A stretch of 64,000 bases of DNA, from NCBI GenBank assembly GCA_963789265.1, contig CAWBKB010000001.1, positions 896,001 to 960,000 of the forward strand, given 5' to 3'. Source of the stretch: an uncultured delta proteobacterium (GTDB lineage Bacteria; Desulfobacterota; Desulfomonilia; Desulfomonilales; Desulfomonilaceae). Position numbers: made by a program. Of this stretch, positions 35,201 to 41,200 are shown piece by piece (the stretch's first letter is position 1; every line of letters starts with the position of its first letter).

Positions 35201-38200
35201 AAGCCTCCCGAGATTATCATATCCTTCTTGCGGTCCACGATACTGAAGTAGCCTTCTTCATCCACGATCGCGATGTCTCCCGTCAGGAGCCAGCCGTCTC
35301 TCAGGGTTATTGCCGTCTCGTCCGGGCGATTTATATACCCTTTCATGATCTGCGGACCCTTTAGACAAAGTTCCCCAGCTTCGCCCGAGGTCGTGATTTC
35401 TTTATTGTAATCGTCCACATCCACCAACTTGGCCTCAGTGTTGGATACCGGTAGGCCTATCGTGCCGGGCTTCGTCTTTGCGCCGTACGGATTGATGTGT
35501 GTCACGGGCGAAGTTTCGGTAAGGCCGTAACCTTCGCAAATCTGCGCACCGGTGAGCCTCTCGAAGCTCCTTAAAGTTTCCAGCGGAAGCGGAGCCCCGC
35601 CGGAAAAACACCCTTTGAGAGACTTTAGACTGTACTTCTTGAGCTGGGGGAAGTTGATCATTCCGTTGTACAGCGTAGGAACTGCCGGCATGAACGTGGC
35701 CTTGTACCTGTCTATGGCATCCAAAATCGTCTTGGGTTCCGGCTTGGGGATCAAGACGTCCGCGTATGCTTTATAGATCCCAATGTTCATGGCGGAGGTC
35801 ATTCCGAAGGAATGGAAGAACGGCAGGCAGCCGACCACGATCTCGCCCCCCGGCTCGAAATCTGGAAACCACGCCGCAGATTGCTGAACATTACATGACA
35901 GATTTGCATGGGTCAGCTCGACGCCTTTTGACACACCGGTCGTACCGCCTGTATATAGCAGCACGGCAGTGCTCTCCCATTTCAGCTTCGGGGGATCGGT
36001 AACAGGCGGATACTTCTTGATGAGGTCCATGAATTCGAGCACATCGGTAGCCGCGGGGGTCTTGAGGTGCATACTTTTTTTGACAAATGGAAAGAGTTGC
36101 TTGAGAGGAAAGGGCAGGAAATCTCGGATGTGGCAAGAAATTATCTTCTTTATCCCAGTCTTCTGCCTCAAATTGATCATCCGCGGGAGCAGGACATCCA
36201 GGCAAACCAGAAACGTAGACCCAGAATCATTATATTGGTGCTCCAGCTCCCGGTCCGTGTAAAGAGGGTTGTTCATCGCGACGACCGCGCCCGCGCGAAA
36301 CGTTCCGTAAATCGCGACCACCGTCTGGACGAGATTAGGGAGGAGTAGGGCCACCTTATCGCCCGGACTCACTCCCAGAGCTATCAGTCCGGACGCAAAT
36401 CTGGACACCATGTCGTCCAGTTGTCGGAAAGTCACGGTAGTCCCCTCGAACAGAAGCCCCGGGTTGTCGGGAAAACTCTGGGCTGTTCGCGCGAGTGCTT
36501 CCGACAGCGTTATTTTCTCGAAGTCGATCTCGGCAGGAACGTCATGGTGGTAGTATTTCAGCCACGTCTTTTCCATTGAAATGCTCCTCTTTAGCTCTGT
36601 ACGAGCGAAATAATAGGTCTAATTGACACAGAATGAAGAACTCCTTAACAGTATTCTTACACATACGCATGTAGATCCCCAAATAAAAAAATGGGTCCTC
36701 GAAGGTGCTCCAAGACGAATATCTTGCGAGACGGCATCGTGGTCGGGTACTCAAGGTTCCCCTTCATCGGATGCAAAAAAACGCATTTGTGGAAGCGTCC
36801 AGGGTTTGGTAGCGTCTTCTTGGAGCAAGGGATGATATACTCCGGCATTATGTTCAAAATAATTCTTCGCGAAATCTTGGTCCTGCTGCTGTCCTTGGCC
36901 GTGTTTCCCGCGGCTGTGGTCCTGCTCCTGATTTTCAGTGATTCCCTTGACATCGGGCTATCCTTCTTAGCGCAGGAATACGGACTTTTGGGGGGGATGG
37001 GCCCGGGCGGCAGCGTGGTTGCCCTATGGGTCAAATGGTTCGCCCCATATCTGGTGTTGCAAGCCATCCGTGGATTTCTTTGGTCACAACGCAGCCTCAA
37101 CGGTAGAAGATGGGCGAATCTCTATTTCTCAGCGTTGACTGCATCCGTGGCAGCATGGTCGGTGTGGAGGATGTGGGACCTGTTCTATTTCATGTACGCT
37201 CTGGGAGATATGCCCGCCCAACTGATGCAATTCTTTCAAATGGAAGCCCGTGATATTCTGACATTCATCGGGTGTGTCATTCTCGTTGTATATTGCTTCA
37301 GCATCTTTCTCCACCCGGAAAGAAAGCGAAACCGTTCGATTGGCCAACCTAAAGATGCGCCTGGCAATTTCCGATCAGAGCGTGACCGTGGAAGTTGAGC
37401 CATCCGCGTAAAAGCGTGGCGCGAGGCATTGCGGAATCTAGCATTCGCAGCGCGCCGAGTCGTGGATCGCTCCGAGTTCTAGGCCGGCTTTACGAAATTT
37501 ATCGTAAAGGCCCACCAGTTGCCGTACTGGTGTTTCAGATGAAAACCGGCGGCTTCAGCTAAAGCGCGGACAGTATCGCGTGCCTGATAGTGAGGGTCAG
37601 GGAATATCTCTGTGATGGACAGCACTCCCCCCGGTTTCAGCAAGTCGTAAATTTCACGAAGCGCGGCTTCGCGGTCGGGAATCTCGCCCAGGACTGTCAC
37701 CAACAAAGCCAGGTCGAAGGCGTTGGATTCCACATTCCCCTGACCGATGCCACCCAAGACGGTACGGATGTTGGTTAGGCCGGATGCCGCGATTCGAGTT
37801 CCCAGTTTTCGCAGCATCGCCTCCTGAACGTCGAGGGCTACGACTTCACCTTCCGGCCCCAATTGACGGGCCACGGGAATAGTCAGGCGGCCGGGCCCAC
37901 ATCCTGCATCGAGCACACGCATGCCCGGCTTCAGATCAAGCAATTCCAGTTGTGGGTGACTGGTCCTCACGCCTCCGGTGATCGGGTTTTCCAGCAGCCA
38001 AGCCAACCATACAGGGCAAGGCAAAAAACGGCGCCTTGACGCGTAACGCCACCACAGGCTGATTCCCACCAGACCGATGATTACGACTGCAACGATGAGC
38101 GCTGCGATTTTCATCTGTGTTTTCGAATGCTATTTCGCGCTTGATTGACGGAACTTCAAAGAATCTTCATCTTTTCGTTAATCAATTTAAGCATGGCAAC

Positions 38201-41200
38201 GTTATCGGTATGGCCTGTCTGCTTCGCCACTATTTTGCCGCGGATGGGCCGTCCCAACAGATAAAAATCTCCTATGATATCTAATATCTTATGGCGAACG
38301 AACTCATCAGGAAATCTGAGGGGTGGGTTCACGACTTTCTCCTCGTCCAGAAGCACCACGTTGGAAAGCCTTCCCCCACTGGCAAGCCCCATCTCATCCA
38401 TCATGCGCATATCCTTCACAAATCCGAAGGTCCGAGCGGGCGCGATCTCACGTTTGAAGTCCTCCGAGCCGACGCAGCGGTAAACCATGCTCATCTTGCC
38501 TATAGGTTTAGGATAATCGAGGATATATTCAATCTCGAAGAAATCTGAAGGCTCAACCCTAATGCTCTTGGTGTTACCCGGCGGCCGAGGGAGTTCCATG
38601 GGCTCGCCGATGACGATCTCCTCAACTGTCTCGTCCTGGGTGATGATTTCCGCGCTCTCCACTAGATTACAGAACTCGAGGGCCGAACCATCCATGATCG
38701 GTACTTCACCGGATATCTTCACGAGCACGTTTGTCAGGCCGTAGATATGAAAAACGGCCATAAGGTGCTCAATGGTGCGGGCGGCTAAGCCGTCACGACG
38801 CAGACACGTCGATAGTTCAGTTGACTCCACATTGCTCAGAACAGCCGGCAAGGTCCCGCCCGAGTTGATATGTCCGAACAAAATACCGCTAAAAGGAGGC
38901 AGCGGAGAAATGGTCAGACCGGTCTTAACTCCGGAGTGGAGCCCTTGGCCGTACTTAACCACCCGGCCTCTGAGCGTCTTTTGTTGATGGAACGGGCTGA
39001 GCCCGGGAGTCAACTTCGAGCGTGGCCGGCGGGTCGTTCCGATCAAAGGAGCGCGGTCCGGAATCGACTGTTCCGCGGACACTTGGTCAGAGGTACCTAA
39101 TGAAGTGGGAGAATGCGTGGAATCCCGAGAAGTTTCCCGTTCCCCGGGAATGAGCAGGTCGCCGGCGGTGATTCGAGGCCCGGGCGCAGTCATTACCACG
39201 TGCTCAATGAGGATCTTCAGTTCCTTCACATTCCCCGGCCACGAATACGAAAGAAGGCGCTCCATTGCGTCGTCATCCGTGCCGTTGATGTTTCTATCGA
39301 ACTCTTCAATCGCTTCCTTGAGAAAGTGATTTACAAACAAGGGGATGTCTTCGGCGCGTTCGCTAAGTGTGGGGAGTCTGATGATCCGCTGGGCAAGTCT
39401 GTCCGCGAGATCAGGCGGGAAATCGTCATCCCTAACAAGAGTTTCAGCATCTATCGTGGAGGTCGAAATTATCCGAAATCGAGAAGCTCCTCGGGAGCCG
39501 GCCCAGGTGTCCGGCCCGAAGTGATCCCGAAGAATTTTGTCCAGAGGCTCCCTCAGACGCTTGTCGAGGCGGTCTATTCTCACGAGGAGCAGCGTTCCGC
39601 GCGCCGCTTGCAGCATCTTTCCGGTTCTCTGATTGTTAGAGCCGTTGCTTTTGCCAATAAGTATATCCCGGATATTGTCGGGGCCAAGATCGGGGCAGCG
39701 AACCTTGACGAGGCTGTGCCGGTCCTTGCCTTCCAAATAATGAATGGTCCTTGCCAAGAACTCCTTGCCCGTACCCTTGTCACCCGTTAGCCATACGGCC
39801 CCGCCTTCCGTAGCAGCGTTTTCAAGGGCTCGCCTGAGCGCCGCGGCCTTGGAAGAGGCACCTATCAGTTGACTGGGACTCGACCCATTCCCCTGTCCCG
39901 AGCGTTTCGCAGACGAGCGGCTCGAAATAGCCGTTTGGACAAGATGGAGCACGTCTTCCAGGTTGAGAGGCTTTTCCAGATAGTCGGTGGCACCAAGCTT
40001 GATTGCTTTTACAGCAGTTTCGATGGTGCCATGGCCGCTCATCATGATGACCGAGCACTTTGGGTCGATCCTCTTGATGGCCTTCAAGGTCTGCATACCG
40101 TCGATTCCCGGGATCCATATATCGAGGAAGACCACATCAGGGGAGTCGCTTTGAACGACGTGCAGTGCTTCCTGGCCGTCGCGAACCTTGATCAGCTCAT
40201 GCCCCTCATCGGCAAGGATCGCTCCTAGCGAATCAAGGATCTCCTGCTGGTCGTCAACTATGAGTACTCTTCCCTTATTCATAATCATCGAATATTAGCT
40301 TTACGGAGTCCTTCAGGCAACCCCAAAATAGAGATGGACCGGAAATAAACTCTTGTTCATCTGTTATCTTCACCGCTGAGATCGCAGAGCACGCTGAGGA
40401 ACCCGTTTGTAACTTTCTGTAACTCAAGGGTCGTGTCGTATGTGGCGCTGCGATATTTGAAAATCTTTATCGGCGGGCCAGGGTATCCAAATGCTTATGG
40501 GTCTTGTGCAAGCCATTCTTCTTCTCCGCAATCTCAGCGGTGAAGCCATTTTCCCCGATGACCGGTCGCGATCATTGAGATCGAGTGGTCAAAGAGTCGG
40601 CAGTTTCGCTCTTAGACGGGGCCATGGCTTGTGCCGACGATGTGTACGCCAGGAGATGCTCAAACCGCCGAGAATCCCCGATCGGAAAATGCGACGCGCC
40701 GGCGTTGGGCATGATTAGCGACGTCGTTGCCGCGGATACGGCGTACGCCCCTCGTGCCTTGGTGCCCGCAAACTCGGCGGCAACGACCACAAGCTTGGGA
40801 TCGAAGGCCCCACCTGCACGCCGGATAAATTGCCGGATTTCAGATCGAAAGCAGCCACCCCACAAGACTGCACATCCTAGTATACAAAGACACGTGACAA
40901 TGATTCTTCTCATGAGCTTCTCCCGGAGATTGACTCTTGGGCCGGATTTTGAGGTCAATCCCGGACAGTCTTATACATTGTATGTACTTTATTATCAAGA
41001 TATTATGATGATAATGTCATGTAATTAAGAGATACCCAGGCCGGTCTTCTCTGAGCGTACCACAAAAAGCTACAACAATTGCAAATAGTTCTGTCCGATC
41101 TGCCTCGTGATGCGGCGATGACCGGGGCGAATGCCATTCGCCATCACTTGACAACCGAAGACTCCATGACCAAAAAAAGACCAGAGTTTAACTCAAAAGG

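Follow-up and report, generated by a model that had tools for sequence, protein, structure and literature searches.

An NtrX-type response regulator fused to LpxC in Desulfomonilaceae, with probable control of lipid A commitment by a sensor kinase

We have identified, in an uncultured member of the Desulfomonilaceae, a 710-residue protein in which an NtrX-type response regulator is fused to LpxC, the enzyme of lipid A commitment. The gene lies at positions 38156..40288 (stop codon included) on the minus strand of the window (the whole 64-kb stretch of DNA analysed) and forms a single uninterrupted frame with an ATG start. From the N- to the C-terminus, Pfam searches and alignments define a receiver, a sigma-54-type AAA+ core, a lid, a disordered linker and LpxC. 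A profile search of the entire genome (a 6.06-Mb draft in 9 contigs, 95.6% complete with 6% contamination) gave exactly one LpxC match, the fusion gene. This single match, the 710-residue open frame and its Pfam domains uphold the initial annotation, in which the only LpxC was the C-terminal domain of a receiver-AAA+ protein. As far as sequence can indicate, a sensor kinase probably has direct control over the switching of the commitment step of lipid A synthesis. With slightly better than even confidence, we read the fusion as an NtrX orthologue with LpxC as its output, in which phosphorylation of Asp56 by NtrY would set LpxC output after translation through a CheB-like docking.

Lipopolysaccharide synthesis is controlled at LpxC, which is also a drug target. 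The enzyme is known to be regulated by proteolysis (FtsH/LapB/YejM), by protein inhibitors and at the level of transcription, and a receiver acting as a control within LpxC would constitute a new mode, direct phospho-relay. Our literature searches returned no receiver-LpxC fusion, and the word "receiver" is absent from two recent LpxC reviews.

Domains and active sites of the fusion protein

The receiver (residues 8–117; 39938..40267, minus strand) matches Pfam Response_reg with 104.7 bits (cut-off 30.2; 4.1e-30). Its active site consists of the acidic pocket D12/D13, the phospho-acceptor D56, S84 and K106. The Asp56 codon (40121..40123, minus strand) is the predicted phosphorylation site and aligns with the receiver Asp of NtrX and NtrC structures. 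Among 69 long forms of the family, which retain the AAA+ module, D12, D13, D56 and K106 are each conserved in 68 and Ser or Thr occupies position 84 in all; in the short forms, which are bare receiver-LpxC proteins, the equivalent of D56 (D52) is Asp in 70 of 71. The receiver is the best-conserved part of the protein within the Desulfomonilaceae, with a mean amino acid identity of 0.82 and a dN/dS of ~0.05.

The LpxC domain (residues 436–703; 38180..38983, minus strand) is complete (Pfam 1.4e-78, model positions 1–266 of 268), scoring 264.5 bits against PF03331 (cut-off 27) and 214.4 bits against the NCBIfam lpxC model TIGR00325 (cut-off 187.25). Its zinc-binding and catalytic residues (E507, H508, T620, H666, K667, D670, D674 and H693) are invariant in all 69 long forms. 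Their short-form equivalents are kept in 71 of 71 sequences, except for T326, which is Thr in 68 and Ser in 3. The E. coli counterparts of these residues are presumably E78/H79, H238, D242, D246, H265 and T191. That this is the sole LpxC of the genome argues for an active deacetylase.

The receiver is followed by a degenerate AAA+ core (residues 141–300; 39389..39868, minus strand; Sigma54_activat, 3.5e-17) and its lid (residues 310–378; 39155..39361, minus strand; AAA_lid_14, 1.9e-20). The core keeps Walker A. The Walker B Glu is found in none of the 69 long forms, and the motif reads "VR" in the studied protein; the Walker B Asp is missing from all 38 family-like rows and present in 19 of the 31 other long-form rows. 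The arginine finger is likewise lost throughout (0/69), a gap or variable residues replace the GAFTGA loop in every aligned long form, and the sensor-II position of the lid is Lys in 62/69 and Arg in 1/69 (GNVKELK in the studied protein). Since none of the 69 has either the Walker B Glu or the arginine finger, an ATP-driven cycle is impossible; judged by these motifs, the AAA+ module is catalytically dead. Alignments and residue counts thus agree with the initial annotation that GAFTGA, the Walker B pair and the HTH were lost, while Walker A, the phospho-acceptor Asp of the receiver and the catalytic residues of LpxC were kept.

The position held by HTH_8 in other families is occupied here by a polar linker of 56 residues (residues 380–435; 38984..39151, minus strand), 77% of which are polar or disorder-promoting. 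It is unconserved, with an amino acid identity of 0.15 and a dN/dS of ~0.8 (dS saturated). A Pfam search of the full protein found no HTH_8; the domain scored in 6 of the 69 long forms, in other families, and the reported loss of the HTH therefore holds for the Desulfomonilaceae and not beyond. Linker length is variable, with 28–59 residues recorded versus 72–83. Of the hallmarks of a sigma-54 activator, the protein lacks GAFTGA, the Walker B Asp-Glu, the arginine finger, the sensor-II Arg and the Fis-type HTH.

Linkage to NtrY and replacement of NtrX

Alongside the architecture, the intact sites and the dead ATPase, genome comparison demonstrates that the fusion is linked to a kinase and substitutes for NtrX. 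The best solved relative of residues 1–400 is Brucella NtrX (5m7n, E 3.4e-55), and the best NCBIfam model of the N-terminal part is NtrX NF051870, matched over residues 8–375 with 247.9 bits, below its cut-off of 600. The initial annotation considered the kinase unknown. We examined 104 fusion loci, of which 87 were informative (enough upstream DNA); in 29 of these, distributed over 13 of 27 families, the next gene upstream, on the strand of the fusion, encodes an NtrY-type kinase (NtrY_N, HAMP, PAS, HisKA, HATPase_c).

The studied genome contains one full-length orphan NtrY orthologue (C1:2193134-2195335), 1.26 Mb from the fusion, which is 43% identical over its full length to a fusion-adjacent kinase (E 2.5e-171, the next kinase being at 1e-31). 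It carries HAMP-PAS-HisKA-HATPase_c and the NtrY_N sensor region (PF19312), the latter scoring 22.7 bits, or 23.2 with neighbouring same-frame stretches, equal to the cut-off of 23.2; among 14 control genomes, PF19312 matches only in Caulobacter. The locus of the orphan kinase contains neither a neighbouring regulator gene nor the fusion. As the kinase is not adjacent, the pairing with NtrY here rests on orthology and the absence of another partner. A full NtrX follows NtrY in 5/5 genomes with a free LpxC and in 4/4 loci checked in the sister family of the Desulfomonilaceae, whose LpxC is also free and whose operon reads lpxC-ntrY-ntrX. No NtrX was found beside NtrY in 6/6 fusion genomes with the kinase elsewhere, and none of the 15 other REC-AAA+ proteins of the studied genome groups with the NtrX set. 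The proposed descent of the N-terminal module from an lpxC-linked transcription regulator is supported by the sister-family operon and by lpxC being the single target of DVU2934 (PMC3333781, PMC4641369).

We propose that the fusion represents the orthologue of NtrX in an NtrY/NtrX system and that its output would no longer be transcription but the attached LpxC. The membrane kinase NtrY would phosphorylate the receiver at Asp56, and the phosphorylation state of this residue would govern LpxC output post-translationally. In the likeliest mechanism, by analogy with CheB, the unphosphorylated receiver would dock on LpxC and restrain it, with phosphorylation freeing the enzyme. The AAA+ core and lid would be an ATPase-dead remnant of a former sigma-54 activator, serving in the studied protein at most as a spacer, a scaffold or a nucleotide-binding accessory. 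Hints to the direction of control contrast: in alphaproteobacteria NtrYX reduces lpxC mRNA, but DVU2934 belongs to the activator type.

The fusion can be regarded as a "Rosetta stone" that ties NtrY/NtrX physically to LpxC, and this tie is support, drawn from an unrelated phylum, for the connection of NtrYX with the envelope that is seen in alphaproteobacteria. A wider reading, in which NtrY responds to a redox or envelope signal by setting LpxC activity directly through phosphorylation of the built-in receiver, the stepwise conversion of a sigma-54 activator of lpxC into an allosteric domain of the enzyme is preserved from REC-AAA-HTH-LpxC through REC-AAA-LpxC to REC-LpxC, and the occurrence under several phylum labels reflects an ancient, conserved Gram-negative envelope control axis, seems to us evenly poised.

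Distribution of the family and alternative readings

The family ranges from REC-AAA-lid-HTH-LpxC to bare REC-LpxC, and spans many families and several phylum labels. Each of the 69 long and 71 short forms retains receiver and LpxC with intact active sites, and the parts between them decay. The intermediate forms show how a transcription factor can become the regulatory domain of an enzyme whose gene was its target. The proteins of 420–500 residues in other families, previously taken for plain LpxC, proved to be receiver-LpxC fusions. Desulfomonile tiedjei, a cultured species, carries a long form; the short-form proteins are small and soluble.

An AlphaFold2 model of a 415-residue short-form relative has a pLDDT of 91.4 and a pTM of 0.90 with a low-confidence linker, and superposes on solved LpxC structures with TM scores of 0.83–0.95 (normalised by target length) and an rmsd of 1.3–2.0. 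The model fits a fixed arrangement of receiver and LpxC. Phosphorylation could instead set the amount of LpxC rather than its activity, with the receiver, perhaps together with the linker, governing degradation or membrane localisation as a local counterpart of the regulated proteolysis of LpxC in E. coli. Proteolysis is the established control there (reviews PMC12444477 and PMC13333357), and the fusion protein ends only 7 residues past the Pfam LpxC domain, without a long C-terminal tail. It also contains two long, polar, unconserved linkers, but these are conserved in neither sequence nor length, no degron or adaptor was identified in the protein, and the confident, compact predicted model would suit direct allostery at least equally. 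We regard control of amount as unlikely.

The initial annotation presented the AAA+ module as a new switch. Phosphorylation might assemble or disassemble a ring or dimer, as in NtrC1/NtrC4, with the oligomeric state gating LpxC. The module is present throughout the Desulfomonilaceae fusions in a survey of 61 genomes and is under purifying selection there (amino acid identity 0.65 for the lid and 0.45 for the core, with a core dN/dS of ~0.22, dS saturated); K175 of Walker A is found in 67/69 long forms, and all 69 score for both Sigma54_activat and AAA_lid_14. The dN/dS of the core, set against that of the linkers, together with the retention of Walker A, suggests that the core may matter more in the Desulfomonilaceae than assumed. 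Yet a careful LpxC tree requires at least 9–10 changes between long and short forms, neither form was a single clade in any of 200 bootstrap trees, bare receiver-LpxC is the commoner form (~73 versus 28 long, of 102 genomes), and the missing Walker B Glu and arginine finger leave no ATP-driven cycle. From the number of changes and the prevalence of the bare form, the constant coupling is that of the receiver to LpxC; on the alignments and tree, the AAA+ module is lost many times and the receiver-LpxC pairing always retained. We consider an AAA+ switch improbable. Of the earlier interpretation, the fusion, its conservation, the sole LpxC, the degenerate AAA+ module and its regulator origin stand; the AAA+ switch is not supported, and the kinase is now a candidate of NtrY type.

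It is more doubtful still that regulatory coupling is absent, with the fusion serving co-expression only, or the receiver draining phosphate from NtrY as a sink, while LpxC works constitutively. Any effect of the receiver on LpxC is a prediction, and four Desulfomonilaceae MAGs have the gene in separate frames. In the 61 genomes, the gene is full length in one open frame in 49, which confirms its reported conservation; 4 more lie at a contig end or have one in-frame TGA, 4 are split across frames, and 4 genomes (73–86% complete) have no match. The split genes, however, resemble frameshift errors, G046 having two in one gene, and the nine Desulfomonilaceae genes examined share no internal start ahead of the LpxC domain. 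The receiver is moreover the best-conserved part, its phospho-acceptor site is complete in 68–71 of 69–71 sequences, and the fusion is maintained across its broad range. An assembly or gene-calling artefact, conceivable in a 9-contig draft with 6% contamination, can be dismissed in view of the uninterrupted frame, the 49/61 genomes, the same architecture in a cultured species whose genome is complete (P0047, 6.5-Mb contig), and the best 120 database clusters, 119 of which have the same five Pfam domains and, D. tiedjei included, are labelled where named only "UDP-3-O-acyl-GlcNAc deacetylase", as previously noted.

Comparison with known systems

Among the closest known systems is NtrY/NtrX of Brucella, Rhodobacter sphaeroides and Caulobacter crescentus, which has the same kinase type as that directly upstream in fusion relatives and whose NtrX is most similar to the receiver and AAA+ core of the fusion. 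The output of NtrX is DNA binding, whereas that of the fusion is a covalently attached enzyme. The Brucella NtrX chain (5m7n) likewise has no GAFTGA loop in the aligned region; the fusion additionally lacks Walker B, the arginine finger and the sensor-II Arg. As unfused NtrX of the same phylum retains GAFTGA, the fusions lost it independently. Loss of NtrYX in R. sphaeroides raises lpxC mRNA 8.8-fold (PMC7240162), and an effect of NtrYX on lpxC mRNA and LPS level is described there and in the review PMC12444477. This effect is indirect and transcriptional, in contrast to the attached enzyme of the fusion.

Within the same phylum, Desulfovibrio vulgaris has an lpxC-dedicated two-component regulator of the sigma-54 type, DVU2934 of the DVU2931-DVU2934 system, which we liken to the fusion module from its published description. 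Its single target is lpxC (DVU2917), and in Syntrophobacter fumaroxidans lpxC is directly upstream of the orthologous operon (PMC3333781), an arrangement matching the lpxC-ntrY-ntrX operon of the sister family. DVU2934 differs from the fusion in being free-standing and acting on a promoter, and it keeps GAFTGA (PMC4641369).

In E. coli, FtsH/LapB/YejM controls the same enzyme post-translationally, but by means of a degron at the C-terminus and a protease complex in the membrane, whereas the LpxC of the fusion has no long tail. On the initial annotation's suggestion that the fusion substitutes for FtsH/LapB control, a search of the genome with a LapB zinc-ribbon model, a weak test, matched only RadA and no LapB.

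CheB, a receiver joined to a methylesterase, stands for the response regulators whose output is enzymatic and serves as the model of how docking within one molecule can exert control. Like the fusion, it combines a receiver, a flexible linker and a hydrolytic enzyme in one chain. The enzymes are unrelated, the output of the fusion is a biosynthetic committed step, and in many fusion members a decaying AAA+/HTH module separates receiver from enzyme. The bifunctional LpxC/FabZ (NCBIfam NF009667, among the weaker NCBIfam matches of the fusion protein) is a further natural case in which LpxC is joined to a partner related in function. There the partner is a metabolic enzyme at the C-terminus, whereas here it is an N-terminal signalling module.

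Domain organization and residue conservation of the fusion protein

According to the initial annotation, the only LpxC of this genome is fused to a response-regulator receiver and a degenerate NtrC-type AAA+ module. The first part of this description was borne out, since the gene (38156–40288, − strand) is a single unbroken frame of 710 residues, in which Pfam places a receiver (residues 8–117), a sigma-54-interaction AAA+ core (residues 141–300), an AAA+ lid (residues 310–378) and a complete LpxC (residues 436–703; model positions 1–266 of 268), and a second LpxC is absent from the genome (6.06 Mb, 95.6% complete). 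The protein scores 214.4 bits against the NCBIfam lpxC equivalog, above the cut-off of 187.25. The top NCBIfam model for its N-terminal 375 residues is NtrX (247.9 bits, far under the cut-off of 600), and residues 1–400 have their closest solved structure in the NtrX of Brucella (5m7n; E = 3.4e-55), with NtrC4 and NtrC1 next.

Residues were counted in an alignment of 69 long forms, i.e. those with the AAA+ module, together with structure alignments and a motif alignment against other fusions and free regulators. The degeneracy of the AAA+ module is equally clear. The GAFTGA loop is missing in all aligned fusions, and neither the catalytic Glu of Walker B nor the arginine finger occurs in any of the 69 long forms. 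The Walker B Asp is present in 19 of the 69 (none of 38 family-like rows and 19 of 31 others), the sensor-II Arg in one (Lys in 62) and the Walker A Lys in 67. From these residues, the module is predicted to be unable to hydrolyse ATP or to touch sigma-54; nucleotide binding may still be possible. The receiver site is kept in the same alignment (D12, D13, D56 and K106 in 68 long forms each, S/T84 in 69), and the catalytic and zinc residues of LpxC do not vary in any of the 69.

Selection across the protein was compared in 12 genomes of the family, Desulfomonilaceae, with dN/dS (NG86) values that are rough as dS is saturated. The receiver is the most conserved part (mean amino acid identity 0.82, dN/dS about 0.05), followed by LpxC (0.76, about 0.075), the lid (0.65, about 0.12), the AAA+ core (0.45, about 0.22) and the two linkers (0.15–0.18, about 0.8). 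Constraint on the AAA+ core is thus relaxed, yet not neutral.

No sigma-54 promoter was found upstream of the gene (40289–41078) at up to two mismatches, and the 33 matches over the window are not above chance (29 expected). Nine family genes were examined for an internal start that could yield a free LpxC, and they share no in-frame start preceded by a Shine-Dalgarno motif. No RNA data listing the gene were found, the matches being soil-metagenome DNA contigs of a single study. Directly upstream lies a small ORF (40572–40958, −) with a signal-peptide-like start and cysteines, conserved within the genus only (three loci, L003, L023 and L024); its product is possibly a lipoprotein. The remaining neighbours encode a NorB-like nitric oxide reductase that includes a cytochrome c-like domain (32491–34860, −), an AMP-binding acyl-CoA ligase (34894–36576, −), a downstream class I SAM methyltransferase whose N-terminal part contains a hydrophobic segment (37479–38114, −) and a divergently transcribed Hsp20 (41079–41732, +), none of which is kept beside the fusion gene across the family. 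Farther away, a 1023-residue ORF (42253–45324, +) carries an NPPY motif, as is typical of N6-adenine DNA methyltransferases.

Long, short and intermediate forms of the fusion

The LpxC domain alone was used as query against 401 genomes of the phylum, of which 102 match at E ≤ 1.5e-75, with a gap to the next match at 8.7e-59. All 102 matches lie in open frames of at least 401 residues, except one at a contig end (genome G331). Domain scans of sampled loci showed that the forms of 415–470 residues consist of a receiver, a linker of 25–60 residues and LpxC. A receiver precedes LpxC in frame in 101 of 104 loci examined, with a start codon assignable in 99; the remaining three comprise one probable frameshift and two split genes. 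Short forms number about 73 and long forms about 28 among the 102 genomes. The fusion family is therefore broader than the initial annotation had described. With a divergent short form as query, the best 120 database clusters all contain LpxC and Response_reg, and their source labels, as given for the metagenome-assembled genomes, include Acidobacteriota, Thermoanaerobaculia, Candidatus Binatia/Binataceae, Syntrophorhabdaceae and Deltaproteobacteria. Among 80 loci from a scan of named-genome contigs, which gave at least that many, 79 are non-fusions (nearly all canonical LpxC) and L148 is the only true fusion. The long form also occurs in the cultured species Desulfomonile tiedjei (P0047).

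Intermediate forms also exist among the public representatives. The lid and LpxC are separated by an HTH_8 domain in P0125, P0126, P0130, P0132 and P0133, and P0135 and P0138 have the organization REC-HTH_8-LpxC. HTH_8 scores in six of the 69 aligned long forms and in none of 71 aligned short forms, an alignment to which P0135 and P0138 do not belong. These intermediates suggest a series from REC-AAA-lid-HTH-LpxC through REC-AAA-lid-LpxC, the form of the gene in the window, and REC-HTH-LpxC to REC-LpxC. In an IQ-TREE phylogeny of 97 LpxC domains, some of which are metagenome fragments, the 15 canonical free LpxCs form a single clade (support 100/99); the “unfused” rows that fall among the fusions come from truncated calls or split genes. 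Long and short forms are intermixed, such that well-supported branches require at least 9–10 changes between them, neither form is monophyletic in any of 200 bootstrap trees, and the long P0130 and the short P0135 are sisters at 100/100. Repeated loss of the AAA+ module is the economical reading of this tree.

Several apparent variants were rejected. Two Nitrospira loci, at first sight covering both halves, contain them as separate genes, and open frames of 1007–1423 residues that resembled kinase-receiver-LpxC triple fusions have the kinase in a different frame. Apparent natural fission in two genomes of the same genus (G055 and G046) reflects frameshifts, two of them in a single gene in G046, which we read as probable assembly errors.

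Three loci (L025 in G317, L026 in G090 and L042 in G429) hold a second, divergent receiver-LpxC copy beside another LpxC in the genome. These copies share about 40% identity with the LpxC domain of the window and group in a well-supported clade of their own. G429 is a genome in which both copies are receiver-LpxC fusions. Separately, the public representative P0196 (469 residues) is a free REC-AAA+ protein lacking LpxC that groups with the N-terminal module of the fusion at L027 (100% SH-aLRT), and may have arisen by secondary fission or reflect a gene call that was truncated.

The NtrY-type kinase and the replacement of NtrX

The kinase, described in the initial annotation as unknown, now has a candidate of the NtrY type. 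Among the 104 loci examined, 87 have sufficient upstream DNA, and in 29 of these, from 13 of 27 families, a same-strand NtrY-type kinase lies directly upstream. These kinases contain NtrY_N, HAMP, PAS, HisKA and HATPase_c domains and adjoin long and short forms alike; none adjoins the fusion in the informative loci of Desulfomonilaceae. The genome of the window encodes a single full-length NtrY orthologue (G000:C1:2193134–2195335, 733 residues), which is 43% identical over residues 22–772 of a fusion-adjacent kinase (E = 2.5e-171), while the runner-up matches at 1e-31 in the catalytic core only. No regulator adjoins this orphan NtrY, which has a zincin-like gene upstream and Sua5/YrdC downstream. 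A gene of this Sua5/YciO/YrdC type, just downstream of the orphan NtrY here (G000:C1:2192090–2192761), is found just upstream of receiver-LpxC in another genome, G327 (L011:4716–5327), and these positions may reflect a gene order that was once common to both.

In a sister family of the same class, a free lpxC (frame of 286–313 residues) lies immediately upstream of ntrY in five of five genomes. Pfam scans of two of its loci (L139:5787–11735 and L140:2580–8577) gave the operon lpxC (287–310 residues), ntrY, a 450-residue ntrX and a radical SAM gene (Radical_SAM_N2), in which lpxC abuts or overlaps ntrY. The 450-residue regulator is present in two further loci of this family; the L139 copy, the only one checked for motifs, has intact GAFTGA, Walker B DE, arginine finger and sensor-II Arg. 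A full NtrX also follows NtrY in each of five further genomes with free LpxC, in two of which ntrY and lpxC are 0.85 kb and 3.6 kb apart. By comparison, NtrX follows NtrY in none of six fusion genomes (five with the kinase elsewhere, and that of the window), and none of the 15 other REC-AAA+ proteins of the latter groups with the NtrX set. In one genome, G339 (family f29), a 52-residue piece directly after the orphan NtrY (L231:3730–3885) shares 54% identity with residues 398–449 of NtrX, its HTH end, and may be a remnant from the move of the receiver to LpxC. Gene order and sequence thus argue that the fusion takes the place of NtrX, and the gene in the window is a real, conserved, long form, devoid of the HTH, of a widespread NtrX-LpxC fusion family.

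Possible control of LpxC and comparison with known systems

The architecture, the intact phospho-acceptor site and LpxC, the loss of ATPase function, the link to NtrY and the fact that NtrX has been replaced are established, and a mechanism can be proposed in which NtrY would phosphorylate D56 and this phosphorylation would alter LpxC output. We lean towards direct post-translational control, in which, by analogy, a CheB-like relief of inhibition would be the leading form. An AlphaFold2 model of a 415-residue short form (71-sequence alignment) has a mean pLDDT of 91.4 and a pTM of 0.90, with low confidence for the linker (118–141), and its LpxC part matches solved LpxC structures with target-normalised TM scores of 0.83–0.95; the model is compatible with a fixed receiver-LpxC arrangement. 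Phosphorylation could instead control the stability of LpxC, which we regard as unlikely. An oligomeric switch based on the AAA+ module, the part that short forms lack, is more doubtful still, and a receiver and LpxC that are joined without any coupling would be the least probable arrangement. For LapB, part of the FtsH/LapB control of E. coli, a zinc-ribbon search of the genome, which is a weak test, gave RadA as its sole match above the cut-off.

According to Rajeev et al. 2011 (PMC3333781), lpxC is the single target of the Desulfovibrio vulgaris regulator DVU2934, and the orthologous operon of S. fumaroxidans has lpxC directly upstream; DVU2934 retains GAFTGA, as stated by Kazakov et al. 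2015 (PMC4641369). In R. sphaeroides, loss of NtrYX raised lpxC mRNA 8.8-fold although lpxC has no upstream site for NtrX (Lemmer et al. 2020, PMC7240162). How lipid A is regulated was reviewed in JBC in 2025 (PMC12444477); that review treats NtrYX solely as transcriptional control and lacks the words “receiver”, “fused” and “Desulfo”, and a JBC 2026 review of LpxC control (PMC13333357) lacks “receiver”, “fusion”, “two-component” and “NtrX”. Literature searches, whose coverage stopped short of subscription journals, returned no paper on a receiver-LpxC fusion. Compared with these systems, the NtrX-LpxC fusion is predicted to be a response regulator whose output is enzymatic, and would represent a new mode of LpxC control.
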